A stretch of DNA of 54,121 bases, the filler included, from Asterionella formosa (taxonomy: Eukaryota): assembly GCA_002256025.1 (NCBI GenBank). It is 4 parts of 4 records of this genome, joined end to end, with 100 filler letters (N's around TTAATTAATTAA, not from the genome) between each part and the next. Parts side by side here need not be neighbours in the genome. Positions count along the whole stretch, not along the records: positions 13,570 to 27,021 come from NKIB01006670.1; 3 more parts are not named here. One strand, written 5' to 3'. Below the pieces are notes generated by a model. That model saw nothing but the letters and a program-made list of their open reading frames with translations. It ran no database searches and was not told where the DNA came from. Position 1 is the stretch's first letter; every line of letters begins with the position of its first letter. A program made the position numbers and the translations under genes. Of this stretch, positions 9,011 through 54,121 are shown piece after piece.

Positions 9011-9863
9011 TCATTAACAAAATCAAATTCTAATTGAGTGGAGTTTTGTTCGAGGAAGGGAATGTTGGAATGATAAGCTGTCAAACATACATTAAACATG
9101 GCTCTGCTGAGTAAAGCCAAATTCTGTGTGCCTGATGGAAGGAAGGGAAAGTTTTGTGACAAAAAGGAAATAATATAGTGGTAGCAAATCAAAAAAATAA
9201 AAGAATAAACATTTATTTTCATAATTTGAAACATGCTTCACTACTTAACTTGCTTAGCTTGTGCATTTCAACCTGCATCAACTATTCAATGACTTCCTGC
9301 AAGAAGGCCTACCAAGCGCAATAAGCATTTGCCAAAAGAATGATTAATGTGGGCAGCCATCAAGTCTTGCAGCAATGAAATGATGGAACGATGATGCCAT
9401 TGTGTATTAGTGTGTTGATCGTGATGCATGTCTCAAAATTCTTTCAAACACACTTGAAACTCACGAAAAAGGATTCCATAAATCAATTTTGCCTTTGGTA
9501 GTAGGATGATACTACGATCTATTACCGGGTACCAGGCGGTACCGGATAATCGTCTGTGAGAACTCCGTGAAGGTGATCTTCACTATAACTTCAACCGAAA
9601 TCACTAGCTTCAACGTGTTCGTCTTGATGCTTAACAGTTTGATCATTTTCTCAAATACCGGACGATTGCGGGTGGAGGAACACAGAATTCTGGTACTTTG
9701 TCCGGTCGAACTGAAGTAATGGCTGTTTCGCACAGAACCTCGTCCAGGTACCGGTACCACCAACCTATCTTAGTTAGTATAACCCTGTTTACCTAAATAT
9801 ATCTCGTCCATTTATTTTTGTCCAATATTGGACCGTAAGACTTCCTGTCCCTTCCAGCCCAAC

Positions 9864-11225
9864 ATGTCCGAGGTCTCATTGTTTCTTCAATCGACTATAG
9901 CTACGAGTGCATCCAACCTTGACTCGAGACGCTTCAGGAATCCATCCCTTGATAACAGAACAGAAAGTTGGACTGAAATCTGGGGTGTGCCTGATGAGAA
10001 ACCCGATGCTACCGAGGAGCAAGTCATCGCGGAGCAGCTTCGAACCGTTTACCCAAAACTCCCTATTACCTTGATTCAATTTAGGCCTGCTTGGATGGAG
10101 CAACTTGTGCTGAAAATCGCAAAGCTTCCATACGTCGTAGTAAATTCAAGTTACGCGGCTACAGAGTCGACAGGAAGTCTTCCATACCTCCGAGACTTGA
10201 CGGAAAACAAGGCACCAGCCTTGGTTGGGAGGTATCATCCTGTTAAAAACGGTCCCTCAGAAACGAATGCAGTCCTTGATTATCTGCAATCAGCACACAA
10301 CATCTGCTTGGATGGGACGCTCTCGGCTTCGCAGAAAGCTCAATCTCATCTCCTAAAGAGTTTGATACTTCATGAACTCCGACCACTGCTGGAAACCTTT
10401 CGTTTTGAGGACACTGATGCATGGGAACAAATTTACCGTCCTCAATATATTGATGCGTCTAAGGGACAAAATTATAACCAAGGGATCTTCTCTGTTGGTT
10501 CGTGGTGGCAAACGTGGTCGGTCCGAGCTGTGGCTCGAAAAGAGCTGTTGGCCAAGGGCTGGACGTTGCAAAAGGCCCAACGAATGGCTCGACCATGTTA
10601 TGCAACATTTGAGACTGCCTTGGAGCAACATAATCCGTATTTACTGGGTACCAAAACAGCATCTACCGTGGATTGCCTGCTGTTTGATCATTTAGCAGAA
10701 GCGCTTTGCAATGTCCACCTCGTCGTGATACTCGCAGACTTTCCAAGGTTGATTCAATTCTTTCAGCAACTGTATGAAACGCACTTTAGGTTGGAGAAAT
10801 GCGACACTGAAGAATGGAAACTTTGGAATCGTCAGGAGAATTTAATCAATTCTTTTCAAACACTTCCCATAGAGAAAAAGAAACAGAGTAGTGACCAACC
10901 TTTCACGAATGCATTAGAATTGATGCAGTCGCTTTCTGTTCATCAACACGATTTGCAAGAGGTGCTCACTGTCATGAAAGAAAAACGAGCCCTTGAAGCC
11001 AGGGCCATGCCTCGAAAAGCAATGTCAACGATATATCGATGGCGAATGGGCGACGACTTGTTTGAGGGCGCTAAGGACGAAGGAAACGAGGCTGAGAAGC
11101 AATCGCCACAAGAGAAGTGGCGAAAGGATCAAAAATACAGTGATGAGGTCTGGATATCAGCCGTAGTTGCCATTAGTCTGGCTGTGATCGGGAACGCTGC
11201 TATTAAAGGGAGCCAATCTGGGTAG
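9864..11225 (+). CDS. Metaxin/Sam37-like (GST-fold) mitochondrial outer-membrane protein
   Basis: LKIAKLPY..N...STGSLPYL N-domain. C-domain YLLGTKTASTVDCLLFDHLA...FPRL. C-terminal hydrophobic anchor VWISAVVAISLAVIG. First ATG at 9864. Confidence 0.75.
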   Translation: MSEVSLFLQSTIATSASNLDSRRFRNPSLDNRTESWTEIWGVPDEKPDATEEQVIAEQLRTVYPKLPITLIQFRPAWMEQLVLKIAKLPYVVVNSSYAATESTGSLPYLRDLTENKAPALVGRYHPVKNGPSETNAVLDYLQSAHNICLDGTLSASQKAQSHLLKSLILHELRPLLETFRFEDTDAWEQIYRPQYIDASKGQNYNQGIFSVGSWWQTWSVRAVARKELLAKGWTLQKAQRMARPCYATFETALEQHNPYLLGTKTASTVDCLLFDHLAEALCNVHLVVILADFPRLIQFFQQLYETHFRLEKCDTEEWKLWNRQENLINSFQTLPIEKKKQSSDQPFTNALELMQSLSVHQHDLQEVLTVMKEKRALEARAMPRKAMSTIYRWRMGDDLFEGAKDEGNEAEKQSPQEKWRKDQKYSDEVWISAVVAISLAVIGNAAIKGSQSG

Positions 11226-12751: not shown

Positions 12752-13469
12752 CAACTGGCACTCCGAGGACGATAGTATCCCTGGTTACCTGTACTCAGTA
12801 CCAGTGACCTAGAGTCCGGCTGGTTGCAACAACCAGGTACTACCGGGTACACCAGCTAGCATATGGGAACAGAGTGATTACCAGTACCTGATACCCTGGT
12901 GGATACCGTATAGTACCTAAGAAAAAGTGCCATACCAGGGGTAACCTGGTACCAGTACTAAGTGTGAGGTACCGCCTGATATTTACAAAGTAACAGGTAC
13001 TGGTACCTGGTACTCCCTCTGTCCGGAAATACCATAGTTCCATCAATTCGCCGGCACCACCAGTGTCTTTACTGTTCGCATATGAAGGATTACATAGCAA
13101 ATATACCATAATTCTGCGTGAGGATTGGCTTACTCGAAAAAATGCGTTTTAATGAATTGCATATGGCTGGATGCACCCAAAAAGTAAACGAATTAACTTC
13201 GACACAATTACCGTCTCGTCCGTTTCGTCTTTCTCCATATGTAGTCTGTGTAGTACTAACTTTGTGGGTACTTAGCTGCAATATATAAATCGACCCATCA
13301 AATACTAGAATAGCGAGCCAGAAATACTAAGTAGAAGTAGCATAAATGGTTTTTGAATTCGGTGCTAAGTAAACGTGTCCCTTTCCCAGAATCCGGGTTC
13401 AAAATGCGGATCCAATCTCCGGGTTCAGCGGCAGTCGAGTTGCGCTTTTGCCGTGGGAGGGACGTAGGG

Positions 13470-13569
13470 NNNNNNNNNNNNNNNNNNNNNNNNNNNNNNN
13501 NNNNNNNNNNNNNTTAATTAATTAANNNNNNNNNNNNNNNNNNNNNNNNNNNNNNNNNNNNNNNNNNNN
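13470..13569. other. Artificial scaffold linker N44-TTAATTAATTAA-N44
   Basis: Identical 100-nt linker also at 27022-27121 and 40573-40672; contains stops in all six frames. Confidence 0.98.
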
Positions 13570-16496: not shown

Positions 16497-18219
16497 TACT
16501 ACTTATGAAGTCGTAGCCAAACTCTCGAAAATCATTGGCATAGGCCATTTCAATCAACTGAATCACAGCTGGGGATAAATCCTGGACACCTAGATTCTTG
16601 ATGGACTTGCGTACATGGTTGCTTGATTTCGGTGGCAATGTTAGATTTAAGTTGTACATTGCCATCAACTCGTCAAAGTCCTTATTCAACTGTTCAAACT
16701 TGAGTACATGATGAATCATCTTTTTCTCGCCTTCATAAACATAGTCATATTGAGGAATATAATGACCAGCTGCACTCAAGTACCGTGGGGAACCTGTCAC
16801 ATTCATACGAATGTCTCCTTTTGTAGCATTGGATAGATAACTCTTGATATGTTTACTAATCCAAGCGTTTAGGTCTGAAGCAGTTACATTCATCGTTTTA
16901 GTCGTGTTTGTTGTTCTGGTGCTACTTGTCACGTATTGCCAGACGTAGAAAAACTCTGAAATGATTCGATCGTATGGATTTCTCACAACACAAAATAATT
17001 TGGCATTTTGGTAGGGATTGTTAGGGAAGATTGGTAATTCAAAGTATTGAGGTGGCAAATGCCAATGAGGGCATGTATGAATGGGTATGCCATACAATAG
17101 TGTCCATGGTCCCACACCAGGACAAAGCGTATTATTTTCAGATATTTCAGCAGCAGTCCTTGGTGGTGAAAAATGACAAATGGACCATCGAATGCCAGCC
17201 TTGGCGGCAACGGATTCAATAATGGTACCTCCAGTTTTCGGGATGTGAACAAACTCGAGTCGGGGAGGATGCGTCTCATTGAGAGATGGAGGTTCTTCAT
17301 TTCTGGTTGGACTCAACATCGGATAGGCAAAGGCTGTAAAGTCTTTTGCATAAAGTTCCTCAATGATATGGAGTGTCGTAATATCTAGATCATCCTTGGT
17401 AAACCATGTATTGTTCCGAACCGTATTGATTTCAGGCAATTCAATCTCATGTAACCCATAATTACTCATGAGCATGGGAAACGTTTCACTCAAATTTTCC
17501 ACTTTTAAGGTATAATTGACAACCTGTTCGCCGTTATTGAATACATAGTCCACTTGAGGCACAAGCAATCCTTCCTTTGACCAAAATTCTGACGAGTTTT
17601 GCTCCATCTTGCTCCTTTTGCTCAACTCAATCTGTAGCCAGTGATTCATGTGTTCTTTCGTCAGTTCCTCCCCTTCGTTTAGACGTAACAATAGTTTGCC
17701 GAGTACTTGATAGACTTGAATCATGCGATCATAGGGATTCATGACAACCACAAAGGTATCAGCATTGTAATATGGATTATGAATTGGGTCATTCTGAAAA
17801 TAATGAGGCGGCCACTTCCAAGTTGGAATTTTCATGACTTTTGTGTTATTTGTCTTGTTCCCGTCATGGCCTTGTCCACCGTATGTGATGTTTTTGTACA
17901 TTCCCCATTGAATCCCAGTTTTTCTTGCTGCTGCTTCAATTAACATATGTGAAATAGTAGCACTAGGAATATGTATAAATTCAAGCCGTCTTCGCTCATC
18001 GCCATCTCCGCTACTACTATTTCTATCAGTATTGTTATTATTCGGTGTCAGTGTCCACTTACTCTGTATTTGTGGTTCTAATTCTGATACTGTTTCTGGC
18101 TGGCTGAATAGTTCTTGTTGCTCATCACCCATTAGGAGTGATGACATTCGGGACATGCGGTAAACAAACATTAGTACGACGACAACAATGGTTTTGCTGT
18201 TGCATATAAATCTCTTCAT
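16489..18219 (-). CDS. Type II membrane sulfotransferase (Sulfotransfer_2-like) with two tandem domains, the first degenerate
   Basis: Domain 2 has LEFVHIPKTGGT and VVRNPYDRIIS (5'- and 3'-PAPS motifs). Domain 1 has LEFIHIPSATIS and VVMNPYDR. N-terminal TM IVVVVLMFVY and many N-x-S/T sites. Confidence 0.9.
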   Translation of the reverse strand: MKRFICNSKTIVVVVLMFVYRMSRMSSLLMGDEQQELFSQPETVSELEPQIQSKWTLTPNNNNTDRNSSSGDGDERRRLEFIHIPSATISHMLIEAAARKTGIQWGMYKNITYGGQGHDGNKTNNTKVMKIPTWKWPPHYFQNDPIHNPYYNADTFVVVMNPYDRMIQVYQVLGKLLLRLNEGEELTKEHMNHWLQIELSKRSKMEQNSSEFWSKEGLLVPQVDYVFNNGEQVVNYTLKVENLSETFPMLMSNYGLHEIELPEINTVRNNTWFTKDDLDITTLHIIEELYAKDFTAFAYPMLSPTRNEEPPSLNETHPPRLEFVHIPKTGGTIIESVAAKAGIRWSICHFSPPRTAAEISENNTLCPGVGPWTLLYGIPIHTCPHWHLPPQYFELPIFPNNPYQNAKLFCVVRNPYDRIISEFFYVWQYVTSSTRTTNTTKTMNVTASDLNAWISKHIKSYLSNATKGDIRMNVTGSPRYLSAAGHYIPQYDYVYEGEKKMIHHVLKFEQLNKDFDELMAMYNLNLTLPPKSSNHVRKSIKNLGVQDLSPAVIQLIEMAYANDFREFGYDFISSTN

Positions 18220-25484: not shown

Positions 25485-26111
25485 GGTTCTTCGTAAAATT
25501 CTCTAAGTAATAGTAGACCTGTTTGATCGAGACTATAAAATGAATATCCGCAGCAGGCGCTTCCGGTAGTTGTTCAGTTGGAATTTGAATTGAATGATTT
25601 GTCTTCAGTATTGAAGATAATTATAAACCGTCAATATAGCCGACAGGAGACGAGCTCACATTTTTATATCCATACCGGTATATGCCAGCACACATATACC
25701 GGTATTCTATTGGACTTTCGACCGTGGTGTGTTTATGTTATCAAAACCAGGTAGTAAGGAGAGTAGTTTACCATGACTACGGTAAATACCAGTACAAGGT
25801 AGGAGGAGTGCGACCAGTTGCCAGGGTGGTGCCTGCCAGTAGTGTTGGTATCCTGGCTCCTGCTGCCCCCAACAAAGACACGACATGCTACGGTAGTATG
25901 CTCTGTTCAAAACCGCGCTATTTAATGATAATAAAGAGCATCCCACCGTTTGATCGACAAAGAAATACCAAAGCCAGCAATTGCGGTAGTCGAAAATAGT
26001 ATCATTACACGTCACTTAGTCGAGAAATTTTTTATCAATTAATAATAATATGCATGTATTCTTATTTAATCGAAACTTTCATATTTTTGTTCATATGATA
26101 CAGCATCAATC

Positions 26112-26278
26112 TGTTAATATCTGCATATGATGCTCCATACATGCGCCGTACAAACCATACCGGCGCAGCCACCAGATTAGGTACATGCGTGAGTGCTAAC
26201 AACGATGTACTTGGAACAGCAATAGAATAGTCATAATATTGTAGTTCACCTTTATTCACGATAAGGTTCCCCTCAACA
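26112..26278 (+). repeat. Candidate 5' LTR (167 bp, TGTT...AACA)
   Basis: Inverted TGTT/AACA termini about 150 bp upstream of a gag-like ORF, with a self-complementary PBS directly after the CA. The left boundary cannot be confirmed without the 3' LTR. Confidence 0.6.
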
Positions 26279-26425
26279 GAACTACAATATCTGTTCTTTC
26301 TCTCTTGTCCGCACCTGCGAAGTTGCGGGTCTTGTCGACAGTGCAAACCAGCACTGGTCTCAACAATCAACCGTCCAGCACTGCTTGCCCGTTCGCTGTC
26401 CCTGTCTCTCAGGCCTTCTTCCACC

Positions 26426-27021
26426 ATGACGACTCCAATCGTTTCTGCTGTTTTCCCATTCCCTCATCCGCTCTTGACGCCAATCGAGGGCAAACCTACA
26501 GCCTTCACTGTAACCCGCCTTCGCAAGGAACTCTTTGCCAACGCTCGCTCTGTCCACTGTACCAGTGGTGGTGGTGCCAATGGTTTCCTTGGTATTGTCA
26601 TGGCTGCTGCTCCTTATCTCTTACGTGCCGGTGAACCCTTTGTACCGCCCGAACATCCCGGCATCCAGCCGCCACACAGTGCTACTGCAACACAGTCCCA
26701 AATCACTGCTGCCAACCGTCTCTTTGACACCTCCCTTGACGCATTCCGCCGTTACTCCCAAATCCGTGAAATTCTCCGACAACAAATTCTAACAGCCATT
26801 GACCCAACCTACTACAACGTTCTGGAAGATGCTACATTTGGATATGCAGACATCACTGTTCTGACCTTACTTGCTCACTTAGAATCTACATATGCAACAT
26901 TGAGTGCGGATGATTTGGAACTCAATCGCATGCACTTGGCCGATGCTTGGACACCAGAGGAACCTATTGAGCATTTATGGATCCGCATCAAACATCTTCG
27001 TGCCATTGCTGATGCTGGTGG
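26426..27021 (+). mobile_element. Gag N-terminus of a diatom Ty1/copia (CoDi-like) retrotransposon, cut by the scaffold end
   Basis: FPHP.LTPIEGKPT...LRKELFANARSV...GGGANGFLG..M, LED.TFGYADIT...LL.HL..TY and W.P.EPIE.L: motifs I recall from diatom copia gag proteins. ORF is uninterrupted up to the gap. Confidence 0.75.
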
Positions 27022-27121
27022 NNNNNNNNNNNNNNNNNNNNNNNNNNNNNNNNNNNNNNNNNNNNTTAATTAATTAANNNNNNNNNNNNNNNNNNNNNNN
27101 NNNNNNNNNNNNNNNNNNNNN
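27022..27121. other. Artificial scaffold linker
   Basis: N44-TTAATTAATTAA-N44. Confidence 0.98.
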
Positions 27122-28631: not shown

Positions 28632-30367
28632 TTAGGCTCTTTGGTCGATTCGAACTTCCAAATCACGCCCATCGAGGTCAACCCCATTGAGCTTCTGGAC
28701 AGCTTCTTCGGCAGCAGCGGCGGAGCTCATGCGAACAGTAGCAACTCCTTTTTTGCGACCTCCAGGGCCTTCCATAACATTGACATGCTCGACCTCACCA
28801 CACTGACGGAAATGGTCCTTCAAGCTCTGCCAGTTAGTATCAAATGAAAGGTTGCTGACAAAGAGCTGTGTACCACTTTCACCGCGTGACTCACGAGGTT
28901 GGCCACGACCAGTCCCTCCACGGCCACCACTACGGCCTCCACCACGACCTCCTCCACGACCTCCACCTCCTTGTGCTCGATCCTCGCGAACGTACAAGGG
29001 TCGGTTGTTCAATTCGGAATTTTGCAATTCACGAATGGCCCTTGCCGCTTCCTTTGGGTGTTGGTAGACAACAATACCACATCCGATCGAACGTCCGTCA
29101 GGACCAGTCAAGATAGTCGCATTGTCTACATTCCCAGCAGCTCTCATGTGATCTTTGAGATCCTGCCAGCTCGTTTCATAGGACAAGTTCCAGACATAGA
29201 CGGATGTGCCCTTGGCATCTCCACCTCCACGGCCTCCTCCTCCACCAGCAGCAGCAGCACTGCCAGTTCCATGAAAGGTCCCACTTGAGGTCTCACGGTC
29301 TTCACGCACAAAAATCATGCGTCCCTTCAACTCAGTATCAGTCAATGTTGTAATTGCCTCGCGTGCTTCATCTGGGGTTGCATATTCCACAATTCCACAT
29401 CCCTTGGAACGACCATTCGCTTCCGTGATAACTTCCGCGTGAACAACCTCGCCTGCCTCTCTCATATGATCCTTCAAATCTTGCCAGGCGACATCCCAAC
29501 TCAAGTTGCCTACATAGCAACGACGCGACTGTGCCTGGTCATCGGATCCAAATCGATTGGCAGCTCCTCCAGGTCCAGCAGAAGGTGATCCGGTAGATGC
29601 GACAGATCCACCACGTTCTTCACGATCCTCTCTGACAAAAATTTGCCTTCCGTTCAATTCCGTGTCATTCAAAGTGAGGACGGCTTTTTGCGCAGTTTCT
29701 GGATTAGCAAATTCAACTATTCCACATCCCTTGGACCGACCATCTGGTCCTGTCATGACATCGGCCCTTGTGACATCTAGACCAGCTTCCTTCATGTGAT
29801 CCTTCAAATCTTGCCAAGACACATCCCAGGCCAAGTTGCCCACATAGACTCGGCAATTCCTGGCTTCGGAGGTAGGTCCCTTGTTGGTAGGAGTAAAGCG
29901 TCGATTAGTACGGCCAGCTGCAGCTGTCGTGAAGGATCCGGCAGCGACAGTTTCTCCCTGTGGTGGTGGTGTTGCTTCTGGCTCATTGGAGGAGGGTCCT
30001 TCTGCTGCAATTGTTGTATCGACAGCATCTGCGGGTTTCTCAGTCTCCGCTACTGGGGTCGTCTCGACCACAGGCTCCTCCTGCTTGACCTCTTCCGTTT
30101 TAGATTCCTCCTGATGAAATGTACAGTCGCGCAAAGTAGTGAGTGAGGGAGCAAGTGCGATGCACACATGAATAGCATCATGTTGCTAGCTAATACAAAT
30201 AAATAGGTAGATTCATTGCTGCACGGCGAGGCATCTCCAGCAGGAGCACACATTCTACAGCGAGCGTTGCTGCAGCTCCCCTGACAAGTACGTCGCACGT
30301 GCCTTCTTCTGGTACCAGTGCCGGTCCATGCAATACAACGATGGAACACGCAAAGCCTTACCGACAT
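28632..30367 (-). CDS. Gbp2/Hrb1/hnRNP M-like protein with four RRMs and RGG tracts; exons 30367-30362 and 30110-28632
   Basis: Four RRMs with the WQ(D/S)LKDH signature and GRSKGCGIVE RNP1, plus RGG linkers. ATGTCG|GTAAGG donor and CATCAG| acceptor give MSEESKTEE. Confidence 0.88.
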
Positions 30368-40572: not shown

Positions 40573-40672
40573 NNNNNNNNNNNNNNNNNNNNNNNNNNNN
40601 NNNNNNNNNNNNNNNNTTAATTAATTAANNNNNNNNNNNNNNNNNNNNNNNNNNNNNNNNNNNNNNNNNNNN
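40573..40672. other. Artificial scaffold linker
   Basis: N44-TTAATTAATTAA-N44. Confidence 0.98.
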
Positions 40673-52659: not shown

Positions 52660-53490
52660 TACATGTAATGTCTCCGTAGTGAATCGAAATTGAGATGTGC
52701 CACAATGGCCTTCTCCGTTTCGGAGCAGCTACAAAAAGTCTACAGCGATAACTCTAGCAAGTACAATATAGAAAAAGAAGGAAAGGATGAGTAGCTGACA
52801 ACAATTGAATCCGTAAATTCGTTAAGAAACAGCTGTTGCATATTTCAACCTTGCATGTCGCCGTAGTGAGTCAAAATTGAGATGTGCCGCAATGGCCTTC
52901 TCCGTTTCGGAGCAGCTACAAATAGTCTACAGCGATAACTCTAGCAAGTACAATATAGAAAAAGAAGGAAAGGATGAGTAGCTGACAACAATTGAATTCG
53001 TAAATTCGTTAAGAAACAGCTGTTGCATATTTTTAATATTCAATGCATGTTGCCATAGTGAGTCGAAATTGAGATGTGCCGCAATGGCCGTCTCCTTTTT
53101 GGAGCGGCTACAAATAGTATACAGCGATAACTCTAGCAAGTTTAAAATAGAAAAAGAAGCAAAGGATGAGCAGCTGTCATCAAATGATTTCGTAAAATTG
53201 TTTAGAAACAGCTGTTGCATATTTTAACATTCAATGCATGTCGCTGTCGTGAGTCGAAATTGAGATGTGCCATAATGTCCTTCTCCGGTTTGGACCAGAT
53301 AGCAACAGTCTGAAGCGATAACTTTAGCAAGCAAAATATGGAAAAGATGCAAAGGATGAGTAGATGACAACAATTAAATTCGTAAATTCGTTAAGAAACA
53401 GCTGTTGCATATTTTAACATTCATTCTATGTCGCCATAGTGAGTCAAAATTGAGATGTGCCGCAATGACATTCTCCTTTTCCGATCGGCT
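52660..53490. repeat. Tandem array of ~190-bp units (about 4.4 copies), with diverged units continuing to 54121
   Basis: AAATTGAGATGTGCC recurs near 52687, 52874, 53066, 53257 and 53447, with a degenerate copy near 53816. 53849-53930 matches 54039-54121 at the same period. Confidence 0.9.
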
Positions 53491-54121
53491 AGATTACATC
53501 TATATTGATAAATGTAGCAATAACAAATTGGTCACAAAGGCAAGGGCCAAGGAGATGAGGACTATTAACTTCATTGAATTCAACCACTCCATAGCTAACC
53601 TGTATTTTTCGCAATATTTCGCGCTTTTTCTGTACACCACCAGTCAATGCGCACCAATAATATTTGCTGATGTCTGATTTGACCAATAAAACTCTTAGCA
53701 GTTTAGTAGATGGATGCAATTTGGTATGAAAATAATAGCTTTGAGTTTTGGTGTGTCCCTGCTGATGTACTAACTATCATCACGGCATACTAGCACATCC
53801 TCTGGTAGTGAATCAAAAATGAGAAGTGCCACAATCGCCATCTAGCTACACATCCTGATGCCTCCTCTGATCAAAATATGTTCATTATGAGTATTTCGAC
53901 TTTTGACTTGATGGCATTGATCTTTTGTACATCGAATGCTATGCTGGATAGAAATCGGCCTTAATTTGGTGGAGAAAGATGGTTTGGAATTTTGGTTGCC
54001 ACAGCACTGATGATCAGTCCACAAGCACAGCAAATTTACACATCCTGACGTCTCCTTTGATCAATATATGTTTGTTCTGAGAATATCGACGTTCAAAATG
54101 ACAGCATTGATCTCATGTACA

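Follow-up and report, generated by a model that had tools for sequence, protein, structure and literature searches.

The primer with which Tf1 starts its reverse transcription is 11 nt long and arises by an RNase H cut. Self-priming is described as established for Tf1 and as proposed for Tj1 and the Tf1/sushi group, all of which are Ty3/gypsy elements (PMC4600332). Within Ty1/copia, Neumann et al. 2019 (PMC6317226) report self-priming as a prediction for the plant lineage TAR, with Houba and Osr-1. The picture of copia as a purely tRNA-primed superfamily, which the first-pass annotation of the present locus had stated, is out of date in the light of this published description, and self-priming in a copia element is therefore, in principle, no novelty. 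PMC3601003 raises the possibility that hairpin self-priming is an old or a recurrent trait of LTR elements.

Copia elements dominate diatom genomes, and the diatom CoDi elements of Maumus et al. 2009 are described as 5.2-8.1 kb long, with the domain order PR-IN-RT-RH and LTRs from 153 bp upwards; one or no stop codon lies between gag and pol, TG/CA ends are absent in some families, and the 163-bp LTR of Blackbeard, an element that responds to nitrate limitation by induction, alone drives transcription of a reporter (PMC2806351). The main text of that paper is silent on primer binding, priming, tRNA, polypurine and hairpin; the only "PBS" in it is a wash buffer. The fungal GalEa branch of copia is reported to group with the CoDi elements (PMC5445492). 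Here we describe a copia element of the diatom type in which the predicted primer binding site (PBS) is the complement of a segment of its own LTR.

The element and its limits

The window (the whole stretch of DNA that was analyzed, 54,121 nt) is made of four pieces of about 13.45 kb each, with linkers of the form N44-TTAATTAATTAA-N44 at 13470-13569, 27022-27121 and 40573-40672; genomic adjacency of the pieces on either side of a linker is not implied. A Ty1/copia LTR retrotransposon of the diatom type has its 5' end at positions 26112-27021, with LTR, PBS, leader and the start of gag (Table 1). The element ends at 27021 because the piece joins there and not for any biological reason, and the remaining gag, pol and the 3' LTR lie outside the window. 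The gag fragment is 98% identical to a full gag of 362 aa (P0001) and matches no Pfam family.

Table 1. Features of the element, with positions counted along the window.
Feature	Position	Strand	Remarks
5' LTR	26112..26278	+	167 bp, TGTTAA...TCAACA; limits from homology start and contig divergence
U3	26112..26230	+	counterpart in the 3' LTR encodes the last Pol residues and a TAG stop (equivalent to 26228-26230)
Initiator-like TCATA(A)	26231..26235	+	conserved in relatives; fits diatom Inr-like consensus
Self-primer arm (predicted)	26236..26247	+	perfect complement of 26279-26290; covaries with PBS in relatives
Spacer, 31 nt	26248..26278	+	predicted rest of R plus U5; small hairpin at 26248-26267
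PBS (predicted)	26279..26290	+	adjoins LTR; not TGG-initiated
5' untranslated leader	26291..26425	+	
gag, first 198 codons	26426..27021	+	cut at piece join 27022

Three other features of the window were annotated. On the minus strand, a 1318-aa ORF at 21528-25484 matches Mad3/BUB1 homology region 1 (E 1e-27) and, weakly, a protein kinase; judged from these matches it is a BUB1-type spindle checkpoint kinase gene, and it starts some 630 nt upstream of the LTR. Another minus-strand ORF (28632-30167, 511 aa) contains internal direct repeats of about 320-330 nt; by eye its product appears rich in glycine and arginine and seems to hold several RNA-binding repeats. At 52668-53605 a unit of about 190 nt is present five times in tandem, the copies having 61-100% identity to the reference copy.

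The segments ATATTGTAGTTC (26236-26247) and GAACTACAATAT (26279-26290) are complementary at 12 of 12 positions around a loop of 31 nt, i.e. the self-complementarity between LTR interior and post-LTR sequence noticed at first pass is a perfect inverted repeat. CA stands at 26277-26278 and TCA at 26231-26233, and the claimed lack of a TGG after the LTR is borne out in this copy. The stem-loop that had been seen within the spacer is present, but in an imperfect form: ACCTTTAT and ATAAGGT form 7 pairs and leave one T bulged, and 5 of these pairs recur in the minimum-energy fold of the RNA. Outside one low-complexity repeat, the only perfect stems of at least 11 bp with loops of 15-45 nt in the 54 kb are those at 12958/12997 and 26236/26279. 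The RNA fold of 26233-26293 has an energy of -15.2 kcal/mol (z -5.2), and none of 200 shuffles is as good. In the public run X1, 7 LTR positions vary at a share of at least 10%, none of them among the 24 arm positions.

The 5' limit of the LTR follows from DNA comparison, in which homology to the related contigs L001, L002, L003 and L021 begins at 26111/26112; identity to the element at 26112-27021 is 98-99% in the first three and 84% in L021. Four different sequences stand upstream of TGTTAATATC, namely three flanks (this window, L003 and L021) and an internal sequence ending in GGTGAGGGTG (L001 and L002). A second LTR start is seen in L003, 5418 nt downstream from the first, and the contig ends after only 55 nt of this 3' LTR. 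For the 3' edge, contigs (not reads) of four public runs (X1, X3, X15 and X18) were aligned to 25900-27021. Right after 26278, 17 contigs of X1 and 4 of X18 turn to unlike sequence, with a consensus agreement of 0.45 and 0.6, respectively, that reflects many different continuations; one more contig diverges at 26279. Divergence upstream of 26112 was seen in 26 contigs of X1, 1 of X3, 1 of X15 and 8 of X18. Because of the homology edge on the 5' side and the contig divergence after 26278, the LTR is placed at 26112-26278 (167 bp, TGTT...AACA). Both limits proposed in the first-pass annotation therefore hold, with differing upstream sequences and diverging contigs at either edge. Word depth in X1, which is a poor measure, is about two-fold over 26128-26279 and agrees with these limits.

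The polypurine tract (PPT)-like GGTGAGGGTG adjoins the LTR start in L001 and L002. Followed by TGTTGA, it was found in 31 of 41 rows examined, and it is missing where the LTR meets flanking sequence or where the contig is too short. Judged from the PPT-TGTTGA positions, the LTRs of the relatives are roughly 120-270 bp long. One contig from an RNA library (X15 record 9), which runs through pol, PPT, LTR, PBS and gag, was set aside, since a DNA origin or assembly through R is possible.

Family members and copia identity

The gag family is very large: 2929 cluster representatives match at E <=0.001, and almost all of them measure 340-400 aa. Scanning contigs of aquatic metagenomes with the gag alignment yielded 48 related loci, whose gag identity to the query goes down to about 33%. 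The nearest Atlas cluster of the gag is 89% Eukaryota, with Bacillariophyta as the commonest phylum among the only 9 members for which the phylum is known.

The pol ORF of L001 (657-4556, 1299 aa from the first ATG) matches SH3_retrovirus, the integrase C-terminal domain, at residues 367-423 and RVT_2 at residues 836-952. It extends 119 nt into the LTR (LTR start at L001:4438), and its stop lies immediately ahead of TCATAA. RVT_2 is the sole reverse transcriptase (RT) family matched, in 8 of the 10 pols scanned; its gathering score of 31.6 bits is passed only by L025 (36.9), and the family of this element scores 20.9 bits (E 3e-4). SH3_retrovirus was matched in 5 of the 10, and in all four pols that match both (L001, L002, L013 and L028) the integrase domain precedes RVT_2. 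The pol of L012, one of the ten, has no Pfam match, and the pol profile gave no match to PDB sequences. The eight-pol consensus has DSGS first, followed by a D..D..E-like block, VVDD and the DAS/TDN blocks, which we take to be protease, integrase-like, RT and RNase H, in that order. Integrase before RT together with an RVT_2-type RT means a copia and not a gypsy layout, and the copia assignment made at first pass is thereby confirmed in full-length family members.

Gag and pol lie on a single contig in 14 relatives (L002, L003, L008, L011, L013, L014, L018, L019, L025, L029, L030, L031, L032 and L037), and in all 14 the two share the same frame with a single stop between them, TGA in 13 and TAG in 1 (e.g. 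L003:1522-1524). A G-rich block, GAGGGGAG or similar, is conserved 5-6 nt past the gag stop. Gag-Pol is probably made via stop-codon read-through.

The contigs L001, L002, L008, L018, L019, L025, L026 and L037 represent one unit of 5.3-5.6 kb in circularly permuted form, and most of them overlap at their ends by 78-739 nt with 97-100% identity. Either the two LTRs were collapsed into one during assembly, or the contigs stem from genuine one-LTR circles or from tandem copies.

Conservation of the predicted primer arm and PBS

The region upstream of gag was searched in all 48 loci. Seven (L004, L017, L024, L033, L035, L040 and L045) were left out for too little upstream sequence, and 41 were assessable. 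The same geometry is present in 40 of these 41: 38 have a perfect stem of 9-15 bp with a loop of 20-36 nt, and two have a stem with one mismatch (L022, 11/12; L048, 12/13). The remaining one, L006, keeps the spacer next to a non-complementary 3' arm. Our assumption is that L006, L022 and L048 may be decayed copies. L014 has a longer leader, with its stem at L014:5751-5806. Among 30 distinct sequences, the dinucleotide ahead of the 3' arm is CA in 15 and TA in 15. About 20 different PBS sequences occur, each of them matched by its own LTR, and none begins with TGG among the relatives compared.

For 29 distinct hairpin regions RNAalifold predicts one helix, with compensatory double changes in 10 of its 11 pairs. 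Of the 314 alignment cells 97.5% pair, and the few unpaired outer cells in the family of this element are due to a MAFFT gap inside the arm. Double changes affect 58 cells versus 11.9 +/- 2.8 in shuffles, none of 500 shuffles reaching the observed number. Sliding the partner by 1-3 columns, a control in which relatedness is preserved, lowers the share of paired cells to only 26-40%. The 314 cells contain no G-U pair, and one-sided changes of this kind are absent. Compensatory changes in relatives, for which the first-pass annotation had called, are thus found even at large distance, and complementarity is conserved across the roughly 20 PBS variants. The lack of G-U pairs is better explained by templated copying from primer to PBS than by selection on RNA pairing alone. 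The minimum-energy RNA structure contains the helix in each of 20 distinct relatives folded (z -3.0 to -7.4). The related loci, 194 kb in total, contain 61 perfect stems of at least 9 bp, 40 of which are of the LTR-end type; CATAA stands upstream of none of the 9 stems looked at from the 21 others.

In L034, a 32-kb contig with flanks, the direct repeat between the 5' and 3' ends stops one base ahead of the 3' arm. This repeat (9827-9875 / 16937-16985), the only direct repeat of this decayed element copy, is no more than 49 nt long, begins 5 nt ahead of CATAA and stops at the LTR end; its 3' occurrence has an ORF running through it and no recognizable U3 or PPT.

Between families that are about 50% identical in gag (L005, L007, L008, L009 and L012), the 31-nt spacer (ACCTTTAT...AAGGT.CCCCTCAA.A) is better conserved than the arms. 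One possibility is that the spacer itself contains a signal that acts in strand transfer, in positioning the cleavage or in forming the 3' end. The inner spacer hairpin was rejected as a general second conserved element, as it is kept only in closer families.

CATAA precedes the arm in 29 of 29 aligned rows, where all its positions but two are invariant, the C and the second A being nearly so. In the 20 distinct relatives measured (19 by script, L023 by eye) the perfect stem starts 2-8 nt after the A of CA. The initiator-like TCA that had been pointed out at 26231-26233 belongs to this conserved CATAA beside the primer arm. TCATAA fits TCAH+1W, the diatom initiator-like consensus given by Kadono et al. 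(PMC4686930). Going by this motif, the transcript would start at A26233 or T26234, which would put the arm right at the 5' terminus of the transcript, as is the case in Tf1. The contigs of the four runs show no place at which molecules begin or end; a pair of short X18 contigs from RNA, one ending at 26234 and one beginning at 26226, was rejected as evidence of the transcript start.

Discussion

Our analysis identifies Tf1-like self-priming, the reading put forward at first pass and supported here, as the best explanation of the primer arm and the PBS, and we consider it probable. Transcript start, RNase H cleavage, priming and the length of R are what we infer within this model. Transcription would begin from the TCATAA initiator inside the LTR, at about 26233/26234, and the arm at 26236-26247 would lie within the first 15 or so bases of the RNA. 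The arm would then fold back over the 31-nt spacer onto the PBS at 26279-26290, directly past the terminal CA of the LTR, and the RNase H of the element would cut after C26247. The freed 3'-OH, paired with G26279, would prime minus-strand synthesis, so that the first base to be copied would be the last base of the LTR. Minus-strand strong-stop DNA, with 26248-26278 as its template, would be only 31 nt long; the cut after 26247 and a strong-stop DNA of this length are the predictions of the model. The plus strand would later copy the RNA primer and the PBS would be rewritten from the arm, and because of this rewriting Watson-Crick complementarity would stay perfect, with no G-U pairs, even as the sequence drifts. 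Once the primer is removed, the first strand transfer would have at most 31 nt of homology to work with, and in some relatives 20 nt, a length that is short and not implausible.

A helix as strongly conserved as this one might also be a structure of the leader RNA that serves packaging, dimerization, translation control or presentation of the priming site, with some other primer in use, and self-priming itself is a prediction. Retroviral leaders pair U5 with sequences around the PBS, and it is on this that such a reading draws. Rous sarcoma virus is mentioned in connection with U5-PBS leader pairing in PMC5445492. We nevertheless regard a pure leader structure as rather unlikely. The 3' arm sits exactly where a PBS must sit, at the first base past the LTR, and no other conserved PBS candidate is found downstream of it. 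Not a single G-U among 314 cells is unusual for a helix that is kept only by selection on RNA folding, and with about 20 sequences at the PBS position no shared cellular primer could match. Priming by a host tRNA or a 5' tRNA fragment, which the LTR arm would mimic or compete with, is very improbable in our view. What recommends it is the frequent core GTAGCTC / GAGCTAC, which presumably is similar to positions 7-13 of many tRNAs, where the acceptor stem meets the D arm. Half-tRNA primers are also described for copia lineages (PMC6317226). The arms, however, end in TTC, CTC or GTA and not in CCA, and the variants in L010, L023 and L030 share little with this core. The distal halves of the arms are A/T-rich, whereas the 5' ends of tRNAs are G/C-rich. 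Moreover, each PBS matches its own LTR over 9-15 nt, in about 20 variants. Rfam searches of 25900-26600 with E up to 10 gave four matches at chance level (best E 1.4), none of them a tRNA, and neither the window nor 7 long related loci contain a tRNA gene predicted by ARAGORN.

Strict Watson-Crick pairing without G-U would be equally expected of a DNA hairpin, and the inverted repeat might thus work at the DNA level, either as a hairpin in strong-stop DNA or as an integrase signal. To this we attach only the slightest probability: the partner arm adjoins the 5' LTR only and the arm in the 3' LTR is followed by unrelated flank, hence integrated ends cannot use the repeat, and a hairpin in plus-strand strong-stop DNA would presumably be an obstacle to the second strand transfer. 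That the inverted repeat arose by chance in a decayed element has a probability close to nil. The single 12-bp stem in 54 kb is, taken by itself, improbable only to a modest degree (20 block-shuffled stretches have a mean of 0.25 such stems of at least 11 bp), but chance is refuted by the comparative data, with the same geometry built from different sequences in 40 of 41 relatives.

Self-priming, with the first 12-15 bases of the transcript, immediately at the initiator, as primer, may even be the general mode of replication in a very large diatom/stramenopile copia clade, a proposition to which we give even chances. If it holds across the clade, strong-stop DNA would be only 20-36 nt long and the PBS would drift freely, being rewritten in every cycle. 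Strong-stop DNA of this size would be among the shortest known to us. Such a breadth would also add weight to the view of hairpin self-priming as old or recurrent. The literature searched contains no link between diatom copia elements and self-priming, and other papers or closed supplements may have one. Self-priming across a large and ecologically important clade appears undescribed, and the class of mechanism is already known.

The consequences would be both practical and biological. An LTRdigest filter on a tRNA-type PBS is described in one diatom genome paper (PMC7466962). Filters of this kind would discard self-primed elements, and the copia content of diatoms may therefore be undercounted. 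If our reading is true, defenses or regulation acting via the tRNA primer site would miss such elements, which would be free from tRNA supply and from silencing based on tRNA fragments. The clade would also provide a second, independent and very compact natural system beside Tf1 for the making of a primer from genomic RNA by RT and RNase H.

Comparison with known systems

The CoDi elements resemble ours by their published description (PMC2806351): the unit here is about 5.4 kb, the LTR has 167 bp, an in-frame stop is present and some relatives have TA ends. The TAR lineage shares with our element the Ty1/copia membership and an in silico prediction of self-priming in place of a tRNA PBS, a likeness that is drawn from the published description (PMC6317226); in contrast to ours, the TAR elements are found in land plants. 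GalEa is likewise described as lacking a tRNA-type PBS and as having a conserved hairpin that begins at the LTR end (PMC5445492). In the same description, both arms of this Conserved Hairpin Site lie downstream of the LTR, a fixed A/A mismatch is present and the sequence is nearly fixed, and the authors report no complement of the hairpin within the LTR. At our locus and in its relatives, by contrast, the upstream arm lies inside the LTR, the stems are perfect and the sequences vary freely.

In Tf1/Tf2 of Schizosaccharomyces pombe and Tj1 of S. japonicus, as in our element, the PBS directly follows the 5' LTR. Its complement there is a 5' segment of the same element's mRNA from inside the LTR, a position that is predicted for the primer arm of our element, and the Tf1/sushi elements are described as needing no tRNA (PMC4600332, PMC5445492); the same is proposed here. 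In contrast to the PR-RT-RH-IN order of the Tf1/sushi lineage, IN precedes RT in our element, which has the order PR-IN-RT-RH, an RVT_2-type RT and an unrelated gag family without a Pfam match. The hosts are diatom-like here and fungi or vertebrates in Tf1/sushi. The distance between primer and PBS of only 20-36 nt also sets our elements, whose mechanism is read from sequences, apart from Tf1/sushi. Our element would work like Tf1, and it stands outside the Tf1 lineage.
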